From NCBI GenBank assembly GCA_012474735.1, contig GCA_012474735.1_4085.1: a stretch of DNA of 64,000 bases, one strand, 5' to 3'. Shown one piece after another: positions 1 through 23,636 of the stretch (positions are counted from its first letter, which is position 1; each line of letters starts with the position of its first letter). Origin of the DNA: a phage. The position numbers and the translations under genes are program-made. The notes below the pieces were generated by a model. The model worked only from the letters and a program-made list of their open reading frames with translations. It had not been told where the DNA came from and did not search any database.

Positions 1-440
1 GAACTATATACAACAGCACTTGTTTTAGTTGACCATAGATATGACATAAAGGTTATAACACTACTACATGGACTTAATGTATTGTTTTGAAATTCAATTT
101 CTTCAATGTTATCAGTACTGGTATTGATGAATTGTAAAGTATCCATTGATTTATTGGACAGCGATACTATAGTAGAATCCGTACCAGGACTATACATGAA
201 TGTCTCATTGCTAATAGTACTATCATTAGTATATGATGGTTTAGGAATATAAATCAAACGCATGATATCACGCTCCAGACCTGACTTATTACTTTCCACC
301 AAAGAAATCATATCTATATTTGTTATATGTTCAACACTGACATGGAACTTTTTGTTTAGAATTACATCTTTTGGAGAATTTTTATATGAAGATAAGATCT
401 CATACATCTCAACTAATTCTCGTGCATTTAATAAACTCAT
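1..440 (-). CDS. F1 paralog (EExFQxS-motif family), partial; gene continues beyond window start
   Basis: ATG (rc) at 438-440, frame open to position 1; motif EEIEFQNNTL. Confidence 0.5.
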   Translation of the reverse strand, partial: MSLLNARELVEMYEILSSYKNSPKDVILNKKFHVSVEHITNIDMISLVESNKSGLERDIMRLIYIPKPSYTNDSTISNETFMYSPGTDSTIVSLSNKSMDTLQFINTSTDNIEEIEFQNNTLSPCSSVITFMSYLWSTKTSAVVYS

Positions 441-865
441 GTTTTGTCTCTTAATGAAAGAATATCCTTAGTATAAACTGAAACAGAAATATGATTATAT
501 TTCATCATTAATTTATACACATAAGAAGCTAGTACTAAATCGTAAATTAATTTAGTATTATATAGTACTTGGTATTGTAACGCAAGTGAATCAATATCAT
601 CTTTACTTTCAATATCCAGAAATGTACCGAAAATTGTAGTACCGTGGAGATGAAAAGTGGAATTAATGCAATCAATGCATTCATTGTCCAATAGAGTAGA
701 TGCTGATGCCCTTGGTGAATGCCAAATAGTCACTGCGTGTATGCCCTCAACGAACAAATCTATCCATATTTTGTGTCGTTGTCTTTTTTTTGTTTTATAA
801 TTTTCTGGATTTGAAAGTGTAGTTTCAATTATATCCCATATGTACAAACAATCATCTCTTGTCAT
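437..865 (-). CDS. hypothetical protein in F1 array (motif degenerate)
   Basis: 142-aa ORF; stop/start overlap with neighbours. Confidence 0.45.
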   Translation of the reverse strand: MTRDDCLYIWDIIETTLSNPENYKTKKRQRHKIWIDLFVEGIHAVTIWHSPRASASTLLDNECIDCINSTFHLHGTTIFGTFLDIESKDDIDSLALQYQVLYNTKLIYDLVLASYVYKLMMKYNHISVSVYTKDILSLRDKT

Positions 866-1443
866 TATAGCACCTTATCCATTGCTGCATTTAATGCTTT
901 TAAACGATCTACATTCAAATTATTGAAGATGTATGTTCCTAACATGTGGAAATCGAACTGGAACTTTTTGTATTCATGATAAATTAAACTACAAAAAATA
1001 ACAGTACTAAGAACCTCTTCATGTATAACAGTGCTCATCTGGAACAGTTCTTCTTCAACTGTACTTGATTCTGGATTGATAGCTTTTAACACATACTCTT
1101 CATCACCGAATAGTACTTTAATATTATATAAAACACTAATAGTACTAATATGGAATGGGTGGTGTGAAAAACTCCCATCATCCTTAATTTGTATATCGGT
1201 TCTAATCTCACACTCTTCATTACTTTTATTTTTATTTTTTACAATACAAATATTTCTAGCCCCAGAAATAGTAAGAATACCGTGATCGTAATATTCATTG
1301 GACCAACATTTAGATGAAATTGCTACATCACGGATGAGGTATTGTTTTTCAATTTCTTTTGCACTACTAACAATTGATAACATTTTTGTACTGATATCAT
1401 ATAATAACTGATGGCGTTCTGTCATATAACTATAAGCGTTCAT
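865..1443 (-). CDS. F1 paralog, unknown function
   Basis: ORF; motif EEELFQMSTV. Confidence 0.6.
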   Translation of the reverse strand: MNAYSYMTERHQLLYDISTKMLSIVSSAKEIEKQYLIRDVAISSKCWSNEYYDHGILTISGARNICIVKNKNKSNEECEIRTDIQIKDDGSFSHHPFHISTISVLYNIKVLFGDEEYVLKAINPESSTVEEELFQMSTVIHEEVLSTVIFCSLIYHEYKKFQFDFHMLGTYIFNNLNVDRLKALNAAMDKVL

Positions 1444-2014
1444 ATTTTTCCTTAACCGATTCTATATTTTGAAGTAGTGTATTCAGAACATCAGTCTTGT
1501 AATTGATAAAATCATTGTACATAACTAGTTCACCACAATCAAGAACTTTTGCAGTATCGTAACAAAGCATTAAGTACTCGAATTCTTTGTAATTGTCCAA
1601 CAATGATTTCTGGAAAATGAATGCATCTCGAATATCTTCACTTTGGTCTAATTCTGGTGGAACATCCAACCCAATAAAACCATCATCTTCACTGAAATCA
1701 GATTCTACAATTTTATTCATTTTTTCATGTAATGCATTCGCAAATACCATATTAGAAGAAATAGAACCAATACGTTCACGATTTCTGGATGTGCGAATGT
1801 ACATAGTAATCGTATCCCATGAACTTTTAATTTTTTTAGAAAATTCATAAGTTTTATATACATCCAACTGAACTGAACCAAAACGATGTTTGGATTTGTT
1901 TTCAATTTTCAGTCGATAATCACCAAATTCAACAATTTCTGTAATGTCATGAATCTCTGAAAGTTCTGCAATGTCATGCATGAGTCTCAAAATTTTAGTT
2001 CTGATATGGTTCAT
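1430..2014 (-). CDS. F1 paralog, unknown function
   Basis: ORF; motif DAFIFQKSLL. Confidence 0.6.
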   Translation of the reverse strand: MNHIRTKILRLMHDIAELSEIHDITEIVEFGDYRLKIENKSKHRFGSVQLDVYKTYEFSKKIKSSWDTITMYIRTSRNRERIGSISSNMVFANALHEKMNKIVESDFSEDDGFIGLDVPPELDQSEDIRDAFIFQKSLLDNYKEFEYLMLCYDTAKVLDCGELVMYNDFINYKTDVLNTLLQNIESVKEKYERL

Positions 2015-2577
2015 TGTGCATCCTCGAATTTAACAGGTACATGTTCATTAATGAAATTCTTAAGAGCCTGTACTAAATCCTCTAATTCTTTTGTACTGTA
2101 TTTTAAAATAGTTTTAAAGTGAATCAAATCTTTTCTTTCCATGATCTTTGGAATTTTATATGCTAACTCTAAACAGCGTACAGTACTGGTATCATACAAA
2201 AGGTTTGCGTTGAACATTAGCACATTGTATTCATCAGATGAAATTTTATAATTATATGTATCAATCACTTCATGTGTGTATAAATTCTTATACACAATTT
2301 TATTCTCACTGAAGTTTGAGCAAACACACAGATAATCGTTGTAAAATGAAGAACGATAATCTTGTTTACGTTGTACATCTGCTATGATTTGTAATACTGT
2401 ATATTTTTCTTCAGAATCCAACTCAATGTTAGCATAACTGCTCGCAGTTTCAGATACAAGGATATTGATGTTATATTTCTCATTAACTTTAATGTACTGG
2501 CGTGAACCAGTATCAGGAATGAACTTAAAACAATGCTTCAGAAGTAAGGTAACTTCTTTAATTAATTCAGTACTCAT
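2011..2577 (-). CDS. F1-like paralog (degenerate motif), unknown function
   Basis: ORF; RBS caggagaagaATG; own promoter upstream; motif region NVLMFNANLL. Confidence 0.5.
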   Translation of the reverse strand: MSTELIKEVTLLLKHCFKFIPDTGSRQYIKVNEKYNINILVSETASSYANIELDSEEKYTVLQIIADVQRKQDYRSSFYNDYLCVCSNFSENKIVYKNLYTHEVIDTYNYKISSDEYNVLMFNANLLYDTSTVRCLELAYKIPKIMERKDLIHFKTILKYSTKELEDLVQALKNFINEHVPVKFEDAQ

Positions 2578-2604
2578 ATCTTCTCCTGTACTCTATTAAA
2601 AGCG

Positions 2605-2633
2605 ATTATAACACATCTGAATGCTACTGTAAA
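2605..2633 (-). promoter_or_regulatory. sigma70-type promoter (TTTACA-N17-TATAAT) for gene 2011..2577
   Basis: rc of 2605-2633 reads TTTACAgtagcattcagatgtgtTATAAT. Confidence 0.5.
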
Positions 2634-2637
2634 GACG

Positions 2638-22325: not shown

Positions 22326-22626
22326 TGATTCTCCCTGATGTACCTTGTATTAGCTTATCATACATATCGAGCATCACTTTTTGAATACTAATTAGTACTG
22401 GCATCGTGCAAATATCAATGTCGTATACTAAGCTGTACTGGAATAATTCATCTTCCTGCATTTGTACTAAATTAGGTAAAGGATAATTGTCTGCCTCTTC
22501 ATCCTGGTACTTGAAATGCATAACACCATCCTTTTTGTACAAAAGAATGTCAATATCACCTAACTCATCAGCATAACCAAAAATACATATACTCGATGTT
22601 TTTGCTATATTAAATTTCATCTCCAC
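22300..22626 (-). CDS. F1 paralog, unknown function
   Basis: ORF; motif EDELFQYSLV. Confidence 0.6.
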   Translation of the reverse strand: MEMKFNIAKTSSICIFGYADELGDIDILLYKKDGVMHFKYQDEEADNYPLPNLVQMQEDELFQYSLVYDIDICTMPVLISIQKVMLDMYDKLIQGTSGRIIEIDIQDN

Positions 22627-22862
22627 CTCTCACCGTCAGCACAAGAGTACTGGTACGTTGTCGTTAGGGTAGGGACCATGTTTGTAATGGGCATGTTGTT
22701 AACAATAACCGTAACAGGCATAAGAATCGTCTCTTCTCTACTCTGTCCTGTCCTTGTGCAATTCATCTTCTGCATTTCATCTGAATCCATGAAATACAAT
22801 ACAAATGGTGCAATCCCAAGAACAATACACAAAACGATAAGGAAATTTAAAAAATTTAACAT
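22617..22862 (-). CDS. small membrane protein (hydrophobic N-terminal segment)
   Basis: ORF; N-term MLNFLNFLIVLCIVLGIAPFVLYF; RBS agggtaaaaattATG; own promoter. Confidence 0.5.
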   Translation of the reverse strand: MLNFLNFLIVLCIVLGIAPFVLYFMDSDEMQKMNCTRTGQSREETILMPVTVIVNNMPITNMVPTLTTTYQYSCADGERWR

Positions 22863-22891
22863 AATTTTTACCCTATGATTAACGTTAGTGT

Positions 22892-22920
22892 ACTATATCA
22901 GTAATGAAAAGTACTGTCAA
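22892..22920 (-). promoter_or_regulatory. sigma70-type promoter (TTGACA-N17-TATAGT) for 22617..22862
   Basis: rc reads TTGACAgtacttttcattactgaTATAGT. Confidence 0.5.
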
Positions 22921-22921
22921 G

Positions 22922-23326
22922 CTAGTATTGCACTGTTCTAATGAAAGTACCTGAACTCATGGATTTAAGCTTATGAACCTCTTCCTGTATACCCTTGAGC
23001 AACTCTAAAGGTATAGGTACATCATGTACTAAGCTGTACTGAAAGTATTCTTCTTCAGATAAAGTACTAACATCTGGAACGCCAATTTTAGTTATATAAT
23101 CTTGATGTGTTGACCAATAAATTATATCTTCAGTACTATTGTACTCCCCATATACTGAACAGTATTGATGAATATCTTTCCTGTACCCTTGAGCAATAAA
23201 GAACTTATCTACTGCATTACCAGCATTAATAGAATTCACTTCGATTGTCACAGTACTTGAGCTTGTATAACTCTTAGTATTATCAGTACTTTTAATACTC
23301 AACTGTGTGTTCTTCATAATCACCAT
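22922..23326 (-). CDS. F1 paralog, unknown function
   Basis: ORF; motif EEEYFQYSLV. Confidence 0.6.
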   Translation of the reverse strand: MVIMKNTQLSIKSTDNTKSYTSSSTVTIEVNSINAGNAVDKFFIAQGYRKDIHQYCSVYGEYNSTEDIIYWSTHQDYITKIGVPDVSTLSEEEYFQYSLVHDVPIPLELLKGIQEEVHKLKSMSSGTFIRTVQY

Positions 23327-23636
23327 TAGGCTCCTGTTTAGATTCTTTCATTAGTACTATCATCTTATGTACTAATGGCATAGGAAACTCTAAATCCCAT
23401 ACTAATGATTCCTGAAAGTATTCCTCTGGTGATAAAGTACTTAAATCTTTAATATCAACGTGCTTGTATATTTTATTTTCGTAATTAACAAATGATATAT
23501 ATAAATCACTAACATAAGAATCATAGGTAATTGTGAATGGCTTACCCTTGTAATCCATTACATCTCTACATAGACTACTTTTGATATATGTATGTTCAAA
23601 TGATTTATATACCTTGAGTTGTATATTAGTTTTCAT
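23292..23636 (-). CDS. F1 paralog, unknown function
   Basis: ORF; motif PEEYFQESLV. Confidence 0.6.
   Translation of the reverse strand: MKTNIQLKVYKSFEHTYIKSSLCRDVMDYKGKPFTITYDSYVSDLYISFVNYENKIYKHVDIKDLSTLSPEEYFQESLVWDLEFPMPLVHKMIVLMKESKQEPNGDYEEHTVEY

Follow-up and report, generated by a model that had tools for sequence, protein, structure and literature searches.

A tandem array of diverged paralogs in RaK2-like jumbo phages: an ancient, lineage-specific family with a possible early, host-directed role

[quoted passage not shown] In the virion proteome of phAPEC6, the products from gp348 to gp548 were all undetected (PMC7247149). The window analysed here, a 64-kb stretch of DNA, derives from an Asteriusvirus (RaK2-like) jumbo coliphage with 97.7% identity to phage G17. 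It carries a protein family, hereafter F1, that takes up about 8% of the genome in this 350-kb E. coli jumbo phage, as some 44 tandem, strongly diverged copies (44 in G17 and 44 in fEgEco12). The array occupies positions 865..23636 of the minus strand and continues past position 1; it is truncated by the left edge of the window, and in G17 it extends about 4.7 kb further, with four more members and one outlier.

An HMM iterated to convergence on the open reading frames of the window recovered 37 members, all on the minus strand and within positions 865 to 23636, at E values from 5e-38 to 3e-11, the best ORF below them reaching only E = 0.02. The initial annotation's proposal of a dense array of minus-strand ORFs of 100-225 aa, belonging to a single expanded paralog family with a common motif, was confirmed. 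The 37 members cover 78% of the interval, and 30 minus-strand ORFs of the array contain an exact FQxS, versus 1 of about 230 other window ORFs of at least 50 aa. With length, motif and HMM E value in brackets, the members are 865..1443 (192 aa, EEELFQMSTV, 2e-24), 1430..2014 (194 aa, DAFIFQKSLL, 3e-15), 2666..3232 (188 aa, DEVLFQLSTI, 5e-26), 3177..3740 (187 aa, ESAMFQLSLI, 2e-24), 4263..4766 (167 aa, EESYFQNSLI, 3e-28), 5479..5973 (164 aa, EEMYFQESCI, 2e-28), 5970..6446 (158 aa, EEEFFQYSTV, 4e-32), 6506..7090 (194 aa, QEYYFQLSLL, 2e-25), 8336..8896 (186 aa, EENIFQNSVL, 4e-17), 9251..9787 (178 aa, DEQCFQLSCT, 1e-18), 9784..10233 (149 aa, EEGYFQGSTV, 2e-24), 10849..11301 (150 aa, EEYYFQNSTV, 2e-37), 11279..11767 (162 aa, EEYYFQNSTL, 5e-38), 11767..12210 (147 aa, EEYYFQQSLI, 3e-33), 12207..12677 (156 aa, EEYYFQQNTI, 8e-29), 12679..13170 (163 aa, EEYYFQQSTV, 3e-36), 14421..14939 (longest ORF 172 aa, DAALFQAALV, 7e-18), 15595..16218 (207 aa, DESLFQYSTM, 3e-25), 16498..17046 (182 aa, EESYFQQSLI, 7e-28), 17217..17840 (207 aa, DAFMFQLSLV, 2e-18), 17833..18372 (179 aa, EEEYFQMQCI, 2e-21), 18369..19043 (EDEYFQYSTV, 2e-14), 18964..19470 (168 aa, DEWWFQQNLV, 9e-25), 19777..20343 (188 aa, EEEFFQGSML, 3e-25) and 20616..21164 (182 aa, EAGVFQQSLI, 3e-27). 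Short forms lie at 4754..5167 (137 aa, PDELFQYSLV, 1e-15), 5151..5513 (120 aa, EEELFQENTI, 2e-17), 7050..7385 (111 aa, EGELFQESLV, 2e-16), 7375..7737 (120 aa, EDELFQESLV, 1e-15), 10538..10852 (104 aa, ESFIFQESLV, 3e-11), 13180..13539 (119 aa, DGELFQAALV, 6e-16), 13536..13892 (118 aa, TAELFQESLV, 2e-20), 13892..14263 (123 aa, EEEFFQESTV, 2e-16), 20315..20626 (103 aa, DEELFQQQLV, 2e-14), 22300..22626 (108 aa, EDELFQYSLV, 5e-16), 22922..23326 (134 aa, EEEYFQYSLV, 6e-20) and 23292..23636 (114 aa, PEEYFQESLV, 8e-20). The youngest subcluster, which includes 10849-11301 and 5479-5973, shows identities of 30-56%. Since the G17 annotation has 125 aa for 14421-14939, the true start of that gene probably lies close to 14798; the true start of 18369-19043 probably lies close to 18881, with the promoter at 18938-18910 upstream of it. 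With longest-ORF calls, overlap is seen at 44 of 55 gene junctions, amounting to exactly 4 nt (ATGA) at 11 of them and to 1 nt at 4, in agreement with the head-to-tail packing and overlapping stop and start codons described at the outset.

The figure of about 43 paralogs first given stands only if degenerate copies are counted, since statistical support extends to 37-38. A larger HMM including 164 database homologs added one borderline member at 16157..16501 (minus strand, 114 aa, EAARFQYETA; E = 6e-4; hhalign E 0.008, in register). Besides the 37, up to six ORFs have a decayed motif. Two minus-strand ORFs, weakly supported as possible decayed members (hhalign E 0.01-0.04), carry it at the correct location: 2011..2577 (188 aa, MFNANLLYD at the motif position; E 0.04, in register) and 437..865 (142 aa, LQYQVLYN; E 0.014). 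Judged by eye, 7743-8345, 19449-19790 and 3737-4279 might be further candidates. The protein at 52711..53382 (minus strand, 223 aa), previously counted as an extra member outside the array, resembles F1 at the level of the motif; it is at best a candidate member, since the match spans just 20-23 residues at LSEEELFMYSTVID (hhalign probability 44-60%, E 1e-4; HMM E = 8).

In full, the motif reads [ST]-E-E-x-[YLF]-F-Q-x-S-[LT]-[VI], with F-Q invariant. AlphaFold models of a short form (13536-13892; pLDDT 85.8, pTM 0.81) and a long form (5970-6446; pLDDT 75.7) predict one small alpha+beta domain, in which a five-strand antiparallel beta-meander is followed by two helices and a closing strand; an extra N-terminal and an extra C-terminal helix would be present in long forms. 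No close solved structural relative of these models was found. The motif is predicted to form the N-capped first helix after the meander, which both models place at a pLDDT above 90. Because its conserved positions extend around roughly three quarters of the helix, leaving a face made up of only the two 'x' positions, helical-wheel reasoning and pLDDT indicate that the motif is most likely a buried, fold-defining element and not a linear signal. The N-terminal regions are highly diverse, as was noted initially, and the central regions are very diverse too. The hydrophobic segment after the motif was retained as a predicted amphipathic helix and not as a transmembrane segment: once two spurious N-terminal ORF extensions were removed, no member had a 19-residue hydropathy window above 1.6, and the proteins appear from their sequences to be soluble, without a transmembrane segment. 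They are small (100-210 aa) and mostly acidic (median pI 4.9), both of which are unspecific traits.

The family extends well beyond this phage. At least 29 members occur in Klebsiella phage RaK2 and at least 30 in Erwinia phage Hallingskeid, in arrays at the equivalent position, upstream of a shared dam / cytidylyltransferase / rnlA / pseT / phosphatase block, and a metagenomic contig of 362 kb has at least 15. An exhaustive HMM search gathered 142 clusters at 50% identity, all of 65-210 aa and all with the motif, and found no link from them to a larger or annotated family. F1 is conserved between genera that retain no nucleotide similarity; in the RaK2-like jumbo phages it constitutes a genuine multigene family, ancient and specific to their lineage.

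The initial annotation had suggested diversifying selection, which is not borne out as gene-wide positive selection. Positional orthologs give a dN/dS of 0.23 between the window and G17 and of 0.25-0.28 between the window and fEgEco12, well below 1 over 5,763 codons, and are under purifying selection. Even the beta region, the most variable part (31-42% of residues differ, versus 18% at the motif), reaches an omega of only 0.46, versus 0.25. Perfect collinearity between two species holds for 38 of 44 members, and about 14% are unmatched. Each copy is old and has been maintained individually. Stronger signatures than such purifying selection and stable orthology might be expected of an arms-race family. 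The orthologs are also deeply diverged, with a median dS of 0.56 versus 0.12 in neighbouring genes and an identity of 73% versus 95% in flanking genes. This divergence is patchy, adjoining genes being 96% and 54% identical, a pattern that would fit allele replacement by recombination.

On the map of fEgEco12, a phage with experimentally established physical ends, the array begins some 6 kb within the left 21-kb terminal repeat, and its genes read inward. Terminators and near-perfect sigma-70 promoters, located in the few intergenic gaps and kept in fEgEco12, divide it into operons. Promoter matches of at least 11/12 at the array all lie on the coding strand (6/6), and the adjoining terminal repeat has eight perfect 12/12 sigma-70 promoters. 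On the minus strand, TTGACA-18-TATAAT (6480..6509; 12/12, extended -10; kept in fEgEco12) lies in the gap upstream of 5970-6446, and TTTACA-17-TATAAT (2605..2633; 11/12, extended -10) lies directly 3' of an intrinsic terminator hairpin between operons (2647..2667), at a place where G17 has an annotated terminator. TTGACA-17-TATCAT (18910..18938; 11/12, extended -10) is kept in fEgEco12, where the intrinsic terminator at 18955..18976 is identical (L003 33581-33602). Further promoters are TTGACA-18-TATTAT (20404..20433; 11/12; fEgEco12 counterpart L003 32121-32150) and TTGACA-17-TATAGT (22892..22920; 11/12, extended -10; kept in fEgEco12), the latter in the gap 22863-22921. Because the promoters are near consensus and have an extended -10, we infer that the host RNA polymerase transcribes the array as soon as infection starts; the label 'early' is given because of this consensus and by analogy with PA5oct. 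Among the virion proteins of phAPEC6, in which the array corresponds roughly to gp405c-466c, within the undetected range, no F1 member was seen. Neighbouring genes encode a Dam methylase, RnlA and PseT, spackle, a Ser/Thr kinase and a phosphatase, which are known counter-defence types.

Two alternatives concern the motif itself. It bears a striking likeness to the TEV (ENLYFQ/S) and rhinovirus 3C (LEVLFQ/GP) sites, and the F1 profile even matches TEV-tagged constructs in the PDB, so that the motif could be a site (E-x-x-[YL]-F-Q) processed after Q by a 3C/TEV-type protease. The confidently modelled helix argues against this, as do the residue after Q, which is Gly in 2 of 37 members and never Ser (the conserved Ser comes one position later), and Tyr at P3 in just 14 of 37. 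A tblastn search with an approximate TEV protease query found no TEV-protease-like sequence in 50,697 phage records (E <= 1). To our knowledge, 3C/TEV-type proteases come solely from eukaryotic RNA viruses, and we regard shared processing, raised in the initial annotation, as extremely improbable. That the conservation stems from an element at the nucleotide level, or that the ORFs are not real genes, has next to no likelihood: no evidence in its favour was found, and the low dN/dS and the persistence of the family across genera after nucleotide similarity was lost speak against it. Identical codons, named beforehand as grounds for rejecting a protein motif, are not seen. Among the 37 members, Phe is TTC in 20 and TTT in 17, Gln is CAG in 22 and CAA in 15, and the motif Ser uses six codons from both the AGY and TCN families; with codons varying this freely, the motif is conserved at the protein level, as first proposed, and a nucleotide element as its source is refuted.

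The remaining alternatives concern function. Tandem immunity-gene arrays of bacterial polymorphic-toxin loci would be paralleled if each paralog, in the manner of an immunity protein or antitoxin, bound and blocked a single toxic effector, for instance the toxin of an abortive-infection or toxin-antitoxin system, a colicin-type nuclease or a competing phage's weapon. Many small, diverged alpha+beta proteins on a common scaffold in one array, the patchy, allele-like divergence with its unmatched members, the counter-defence genes in the flanks and a ParE-like gene that, in the metagenomic relative, lies upstream of the array at a distance of a few kb all suit this idea, which we nevertheless hold to be unlikely. 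We likewise doubt that the family serves the phage itself, as client-specialised regulators, chaperones or organisers of its transcription, replication or assembly. Collinear copies under purifying selection, retained in three genera with different hosts, are what housekeeping phage functions typically show; the low ortholog identity relative to flanking genes, the absence from virions and the host-type early promoters, which argue against a late or assembly function, count against it, and we know of no precedent for an internal housekeeping role with forty-odd paralogs. Finally, F1 might be an adaptor library resembling poxvirus ankyrin/F-box-like families, the invariant helix docking on a common hub (a host protease, RNA polymerase or phage protein) and the variable part recruiting targets. 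A variable N-terminal and beta part joined to an invariant C-terminal motif with polar E, E, Q and S would suit such an architecture. The helix is, however, conserved around most of its circumference, and its free-face positions (-2 and +2 from F) are the most variable, which favours a buried core helix over a docking surface; [ST]-x-x-E is a classical helix N-cap, we know of no hub candidate, and the adaptor reading appears very unlikely.

To conclude, we give about an even chance to F1 being an early, host-directed family, a host-takeover or counter-defence battery with recombination-shuffled alleles. The immunity, anti-defence or host-takeover role initially suggested would fit the early-type promoters, the proximity to the terminal repeat and the absence from virions. 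The operons would be translationally coupled, with a terminator and a near-consensus, extended -10 sigma-70 promoter ahead of each, and would be read by the host RNA polymerase as infection starts. Each paralog may then bind a different cytoplasmic target through its own fast-evolving beta-sheet and N-terminal surface. Jointly, the paralogs would make up the proposed battery, whose alleles recombination between phages may shuffle.

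The small genes at the left of the window, all on the minus strand, form one family of tandem paralogs, F1, defined by the motif [ST]-E-E-x-[YLF]-F-Q-x-S-[LT]-[VI]. An HMM seeded with the ORFs bearing FQxS and iterated until convergence recovered 37 members, all within 865-23636, at E values of 5e-38 to 3e-11, the next ORF scoring 0.02. Members occupy 78% of this span, and an exact FQxS occurs in 30 of the minus-strand array ORFs against one among the other ~230 ORFs of the window. The initial annotation had counted about 43 paralogs; the tandem family stands, and that figure is reached only if degenerate copies are counted, because the HMM supports 37 and the rest are borderline or decayed ORFs. 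The ORF at 16157-16501 joins F1 under an enlarged HMM, and decayed motifs lie in register in ORFs 437-865 and 2011-2577. An additional member suggested at 52711-53382 does resemble F1 across LSEEELFMYSTVID, but the likeness is confined to that stretch. The packing is head-to-tail as described, with 44 of 55 junctions overlapping, of which 15 show the classic stop/start overlap of 4 nt or 1 nt, and the G+C content of the array is 30-33%. The non-member ORFs interspersed in the array were considered as a second conserved partner family and rejected, all being orphan PHROGs.

Divergence among the paralogs is extensive. F and Q are the only invariant alignment columns, column identity averages 14%, and BLASTP detects 57 of the 666 possible pairs. 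Two subclusters are young, one of six members at 10849-13170 and 5479-5973 (30-56% identity) and one at 13180-14939 (39-43% identity), while the members outside both are old. A homopolymer of nine C (nine G on the coding strand) is found at 14964-14972, beside a TTGACA, in the gap of 58 nt that precedes gene 14421-14939; it could be slippage-prone, or merely a sequencing-error-prone site.

The conserved element is a protein motif. The invariant F is encoded by TTC in 20 genes and TTT in 17, the invariant Q by CAG in 22 and CAA in 15, and the conserved motif Ser by AGT, AGC, TCA, TCT, TCG and TCC, so that the refuting outcome named in the initial annotation, conservation of the nucleotides only, is not borne out. 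The wrong FQ was taken in two of the 37 genes of this tally (17217-17840 and 20616-21164), and the conclusion is independent of both. A DNA-level element is refuted by this codon variation at F, Q and Ser, and we give it practically no credence. Moreover, the F1 ORFs are real genes, because their ortholog dN/dS is far below 1.

Structural models suggest what the motif does. The model of a short-form member (13536-13892; 64 homologs aligned; pLDDT 85.8, pTM 0.81) displays five antiparallel strands, a helix at residues 65-74 (T-A-E-L-F-Q-E-S-L-V), a second helix at 83-99 and a final strand. The long form (5970-6446; pLDDT 75.7) is predicted to share this core, with added N-terminal and C-terminal helices and a low-confidence central loop. 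The motif falls in a predicted helix with pLDDT >90 in both, at 65-74 in the short and 104-111 in the long form. On a helical wheel, the conserved motif positions span ~240 degrees and both variable "x" positions lie on the remaining face, and [ST]-x-x-E is a standard N-cap. Based on the wheel, the N-cap pattern and the pLDDT, and thus on sequence and model confidence instead of coordinates, the motif is read as a buried, fold-defining helix. The proteins have a median pI of 4.9, with 30 of 37 below 5.7, and a genuine transmembrane segment is absent from the members.

The initial annotation had also raised a 3C/TEV-type processing site, and at the string level the likeness is real, E-x-x-[Y/L]-F-Q being shared with the sites of TEV NIa and picornavirus 3C proteases. 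The F1 profile retrieves TEV-tagged PDB constructs; its sole PDB matches, a tag artefact and all that the PDB sequence profile search returned, are residues 14-45 of eRF1 expression constructs, which we take to be most likely an engineered TEV site. These matches show how closely the motif mimics ENLYFQ. However, a cleavage site would be expected in a linker that is exposed, extended or disordered, and the motif is a predicted helix in both models. Q is followed by G in two of 37 members and by S in none, and by Y, E, Q, L, N, M, K, A, V or F in the other 35; the conserved Ser is next but one after Q, one residue beyond the equivalent of the cleavage P1' position. A tblastn search with a manually entered TEV protease sequence gave no match by sequence similarity among 50,697 phage records at E ≤ 1, and the only protease among the virion proteins in Table 1 of the phAPEC6 virion proteome is the prohead protease. 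The F1 motif would accordingly differ from TEV NIa and 3C sites as a structured helix that lacks both the required small residue after Q and a cognate protease, and we regard cleavage as highly improbable.

The family recurs among RaK2-like phages. By megablast, window 1-24000 is 97.7% identical to Escherichia phage vB_EcoM_G17 (MK327931, 319704-344070); phAPEC6, SHEFM2K, PBECO4 and 121Q are other close Asteriusvirus matches, and the 36 matching records are all ~350-kb E. coli or Salmonella phages. The array is truncated at the window edge, and HMM scans place the full set at 44 members each in G17 and in the related phage fEgEco12, as a ~29 kb array plus one outlier beside rnlA. In G17 the outlier (G17_00489, 229 aa; MK327931 302656-303345, or 7657-8346 of the G17 stretch L005) lies ~12 kb downstream of the array and adjoins RNA ligase A; in fEgEco12 the same outlier is found at 17346-18035 of its stretch L004. 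The tblastn matches to F1 are confined to the 36 Asteriusvirus records. Foldseek against viral models returned consecutive proteins of Klebsiella phage RaK2 (genus Alcyoneusvirus), in which the HMM finds at least 29 members. The same block of dam, cytidylyltransferase, rnlA, pseT and Ser-Thr-phosphatase genes follows the RaK2 array immediately downstream. At least 30 members occupy the syntenic place in Erwinia phage Hallingskeid, and a 362-kb metagenomic contig contains at least 15. This divergent relative (contig AGFT01054919) also carries a gene for a ParE-like toxin domain (positions 1088-1339 of the stretch L001), ~6 kb upstream of its F1 array.

When 1.84 billion representatives were scanned exhaustively with HMMER, the result was 142 F1 clusters, all of 65-210 aa and nearly all with [ST]EE.[YLF]FQ.S[LT][VI]; none was attached to a larger or annotated protein, and the cluster look-up of divergent matches led to unnamed metagenome sequences. 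A word-indexed protein search gave close relatives only. Profile searches covered individual members as well as the full set of 37. In Pfam-A no family matched more than one of the 37 members (best isolated match, E 9e-4), and PADLOC profiles gave nothing consistent. The same proteins are present in PHROGs as groups 9317, 12674, 13866, 15629, 28680, 19795, 38467, 30978, 30243, 18780 and others of 'unknown function'. Each member in the window matches one such group at E 1e-56 to 1e-142 and cross-matches others weakly, so that F1 is split there over more than 10 unrelated-looking, unannotated groups. Neither PHROGs nor Pfam records the single-family relationship, the motif or the fold, and the family is undescribed in the genome papers on PBECO4, 121Q, phAPEC6, Sharanji, fEgEco12, UE-S1, RaK2 and CBB and in a jumbo-phage comparative review; on paralogs, the RaK2 paper remarks only that ~10% of RaK2 proteins are paralogs.

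The initial annotation had suggested diversifying selection on the paralogs; on a gene-wide scale this is not supported, the dN/dS values being well below 1. Between the window and fEgEco12, 34 of the 37 members have collinear reciprocal best matches, with a median dN of 0.157, a median dS of 0.555, a dN/dS of 0.28 (median) or 0.25 (pooled) and 73% identity; the pooled comparison with G17 (5,763 codons) gives a dN of 0.0131, a dS of 0.0574 and a dN/dS of 0.23. G17 and fEgEco12 have 38 of 44 members in common, perfectly collinear, and each phage has six without a counterpart in the other. Ortholog differences affect 31-42% of residues in the beta region, 18% around the motif and 0% at F-Q, and even the beta region, the most variable, has an omega of 0.46 against 0.25. 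Given the collinear orthologs, the low dN/dS and the concentration of differences in the beta region, the copies are old, individually maintained and under purifying selection. The array is also much more diverged than its surroundings, synonymous sites included: the terminal-repeat genes of the same two phages show a dN of 0.024, a dS of 0.121, a dN/dS of 0.17 and 95% identity. This high synonymous divergence, together with identities that fall from 96% to 40% among adjacent genes, suggests allele replacement through recombination with distant relatives.

The physical ends of fEgEco12 have been confirmed experimentally, with a direct terminal repeat of 20,993 bp (PMC13070987). Window ~30,100-50,500 equals this repeat in reverse orientation, and the window therefore spans a collapsed genome end; the GC skew changes sign at ~50 kb. 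From the left end inward, the terminal repeat is followed by F2, by F1, and then by Dam methylase, RnlA, PseT and a phosphatase. The terminal repeat carries spaced small genes, including those for spackle, a DksA-like protein, a GNAT acetyltransferase and a Ser/Thr kinase. F2, a second small-protein array on the minus strand (32 HMM-supported paralogs of ~70 aa, motif LGT.xQE...YI..L), runs contiguously head-to-tail from the inner edge of the repeat to F1 (23626-30012), with two pairs embedded within F1 (8886-9273 and 21871-22325). A third array, F3 (50780-54830, minus strand), consists of ~17 ORFs of ~60 aa that start with M.KEFY and end in a hydrophobic ...IL.LIYRY tail; it is located just beyond the left physical end of the genome (~50.5 kb), and the motif-bearing ORF of 223 aa at 52711-53382 is inserted among its ORFs. 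Kinship of F1 to F2 and F3 was rejected by hhalign.

The terminal repeat is rich in host-type promoters. Eight perfect 12/12 TTGACA-N16/17-TATAAT promoters lie on the coding (minus) strand at 31833-39713, within 8 kb of the terminal repeat, a density far beyond chance; several 11/12 sites accompany them, giving in effect one promoter per small terminal-repeat gene. A 28-nt GC-rich hairpin occurs there in three identical copies (31535-31562, 33803-33830 and 36807-36834; minus-strand sequence AAAGGGATTGACTCCGGTCAGTCCCTTT), with a TTGACT -35-like hexamer in the stem followed by TATTAT, and may be a combined terminator/promoter or operator module. Within F1 the intergenic gaps are few, and several contain a terminator hairpin or a near-consensus sigma-70 promoter. 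These minus-strand promoters are found at 6509-6480 (12/12) and, as 11/12 matches, at 2633-2605, 18938-18910, 20433-20404 and 22920-22892; an extended -10 is present in most (four), and a Shine-Dalgarno sequence and an ATG lie downstream. The last of them directly precedes the gene for an 81-aa protein (22617-22862, minus strand) with a strongly hydrophobic N-terminal segment (MLNFLNFLIVLCIVLGIAPFVLYF), the sole membrane-like protein within the array. Because the total count of weak promoter matches in the array is not above that of shuffles, only top-scoring, gap-located and conserved promoters were used. The F1 promoters and terminators are kept at orthologous positions in fEgEco12 despite a ~27% protein difference in the flanking genes, and all six sites of at least 11/12 in the fEgEco12 array are on the coding strand.

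F1 thus has sigma-70 promoters upstream of its operons on the coding strand, as in the early (host-RNA-polymerase) class, and we infer that it is transcribed by the host RNA polymerase as several translationally coupled operons, which would be expressed early. RNA-seq of a distant relative, PA5oct, assigned the terminal-repeat genes to the early class and indicated that the phage depends on the host polymerase (PMC7318152). In phAPEC6, where the array corresponds to ~gp405c-gp466c, ESI-MS/MS of the virion identified 62 proteins and nothing between gp348 and gp548 (PMC7247149); on the negative evidence of this one study, the F1 proteins are non-structural.

We see roughly an even chance that F1 is a host-takeover or counter-defence battery. 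Its proteins would be early and cytoplasmic and would share a common scaffold, and each paralog would use the variable sheet and the N-terminal surface to engage a different target, presumably in the host. A battery of immunity or antitoxin-like proteins appears considerably less probable. Bacterial polymorphic-toxin systems have tandem arrays of immunity proteins, such as SUKH/SMI1, which resemble F1 in being small alpha+beta proteins whose scaffold is conserved and whose surfaces have diverged, but the SMI1_KNR4, Syd and SUKH families gave no profile or fold match to F1. A role internal to the phage is equally unlikely in our estimation, and would imply an unusual 40-fold subfunctionalisation, stably kept across genera. 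Another possibility would be an adaptor library whose conserved helix docks on a common hub; this reading is weakened by the argument that the helix is buried, and we consider it more doubtful still.

Big DNA viruses are known to harbour large expansions of paralogs near their genome ends. Terminal multigene families such as MGF110/360/505 of ASFV, the ankyrin and Bcl-2-like families of poxviruses and US22 of herpesviruses modulate host range and immunity, and are comparable to F1 as tandem, highly diverged paralogs near genome ends with strain-variable gene content. However, they have no sequence or fold relationship to F1, whose host is bacterial and whose role in host range is only putative. 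Early modules at the leading end are likewise familiar in phages: the pre-early region in the terminal repeat of T5, the host-takeover module in the terminal redundancy of SPO1 and the class I genes of T7. Like F1, these modules and that of PA5oct are placed at a long terminal repeat or adjacent to it, carry strong promoters of the host type, encode small proteins that are not part of the virion, and have kinase and anti-restriction functions nearby. They consist of unrelated single genes, whereas F1 is one family of ~44 paralogs, and F1 lies just inside the boundary of the repeat and not within it. A further likeness is the Zn-ribbon expansion of ~35 copies in Bacillus phage G, called an 'unprecedented lineage-specific expansion' in a jumbo-phage review (PMC7824862), which is also a very large expansion of a small-domain paralog in one jumbo-phage lineage. 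The domain is unrelated, F1 being predicted as alpha+beta without a Cys/His metal site; F1 is larger (~44 copies), contains no recognised domain, and its array is conserved across at least three genera. It is a tentative idea, and one that we think is more likely wrong, that F1 with the neighbouring F2 and F3 might be the phage counterpart of the poxvirus and ASFV families: a heritable, recombining library of ~44 binders on one undescribed scaffold. In the first minutes of infection each binder would neutralise its own target in host defence or housekeeping, and jointly they would set the host range of RaK2-like jumbo phages.

Most jumbo-phage proteins are without an assigned function (83% in phAPEC6), and F1 alone comprises ~44 genes and ~29 kb (8%) of each Asteriusvirus genome. 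Its recognition as a single family merges more than 10 'unknown' PHROG groups and yields an HMM and a confident domain model, making F1 a well-defined and directly testable object. It is also found in giant Klebsiella and Erwinia phages that are under consideration for therapy. If F1 is a counter-defence or takeover battery, we know of no larger such paralog set in a bacterial virus, and it would offer many new inhibitors of bacterial proteins.
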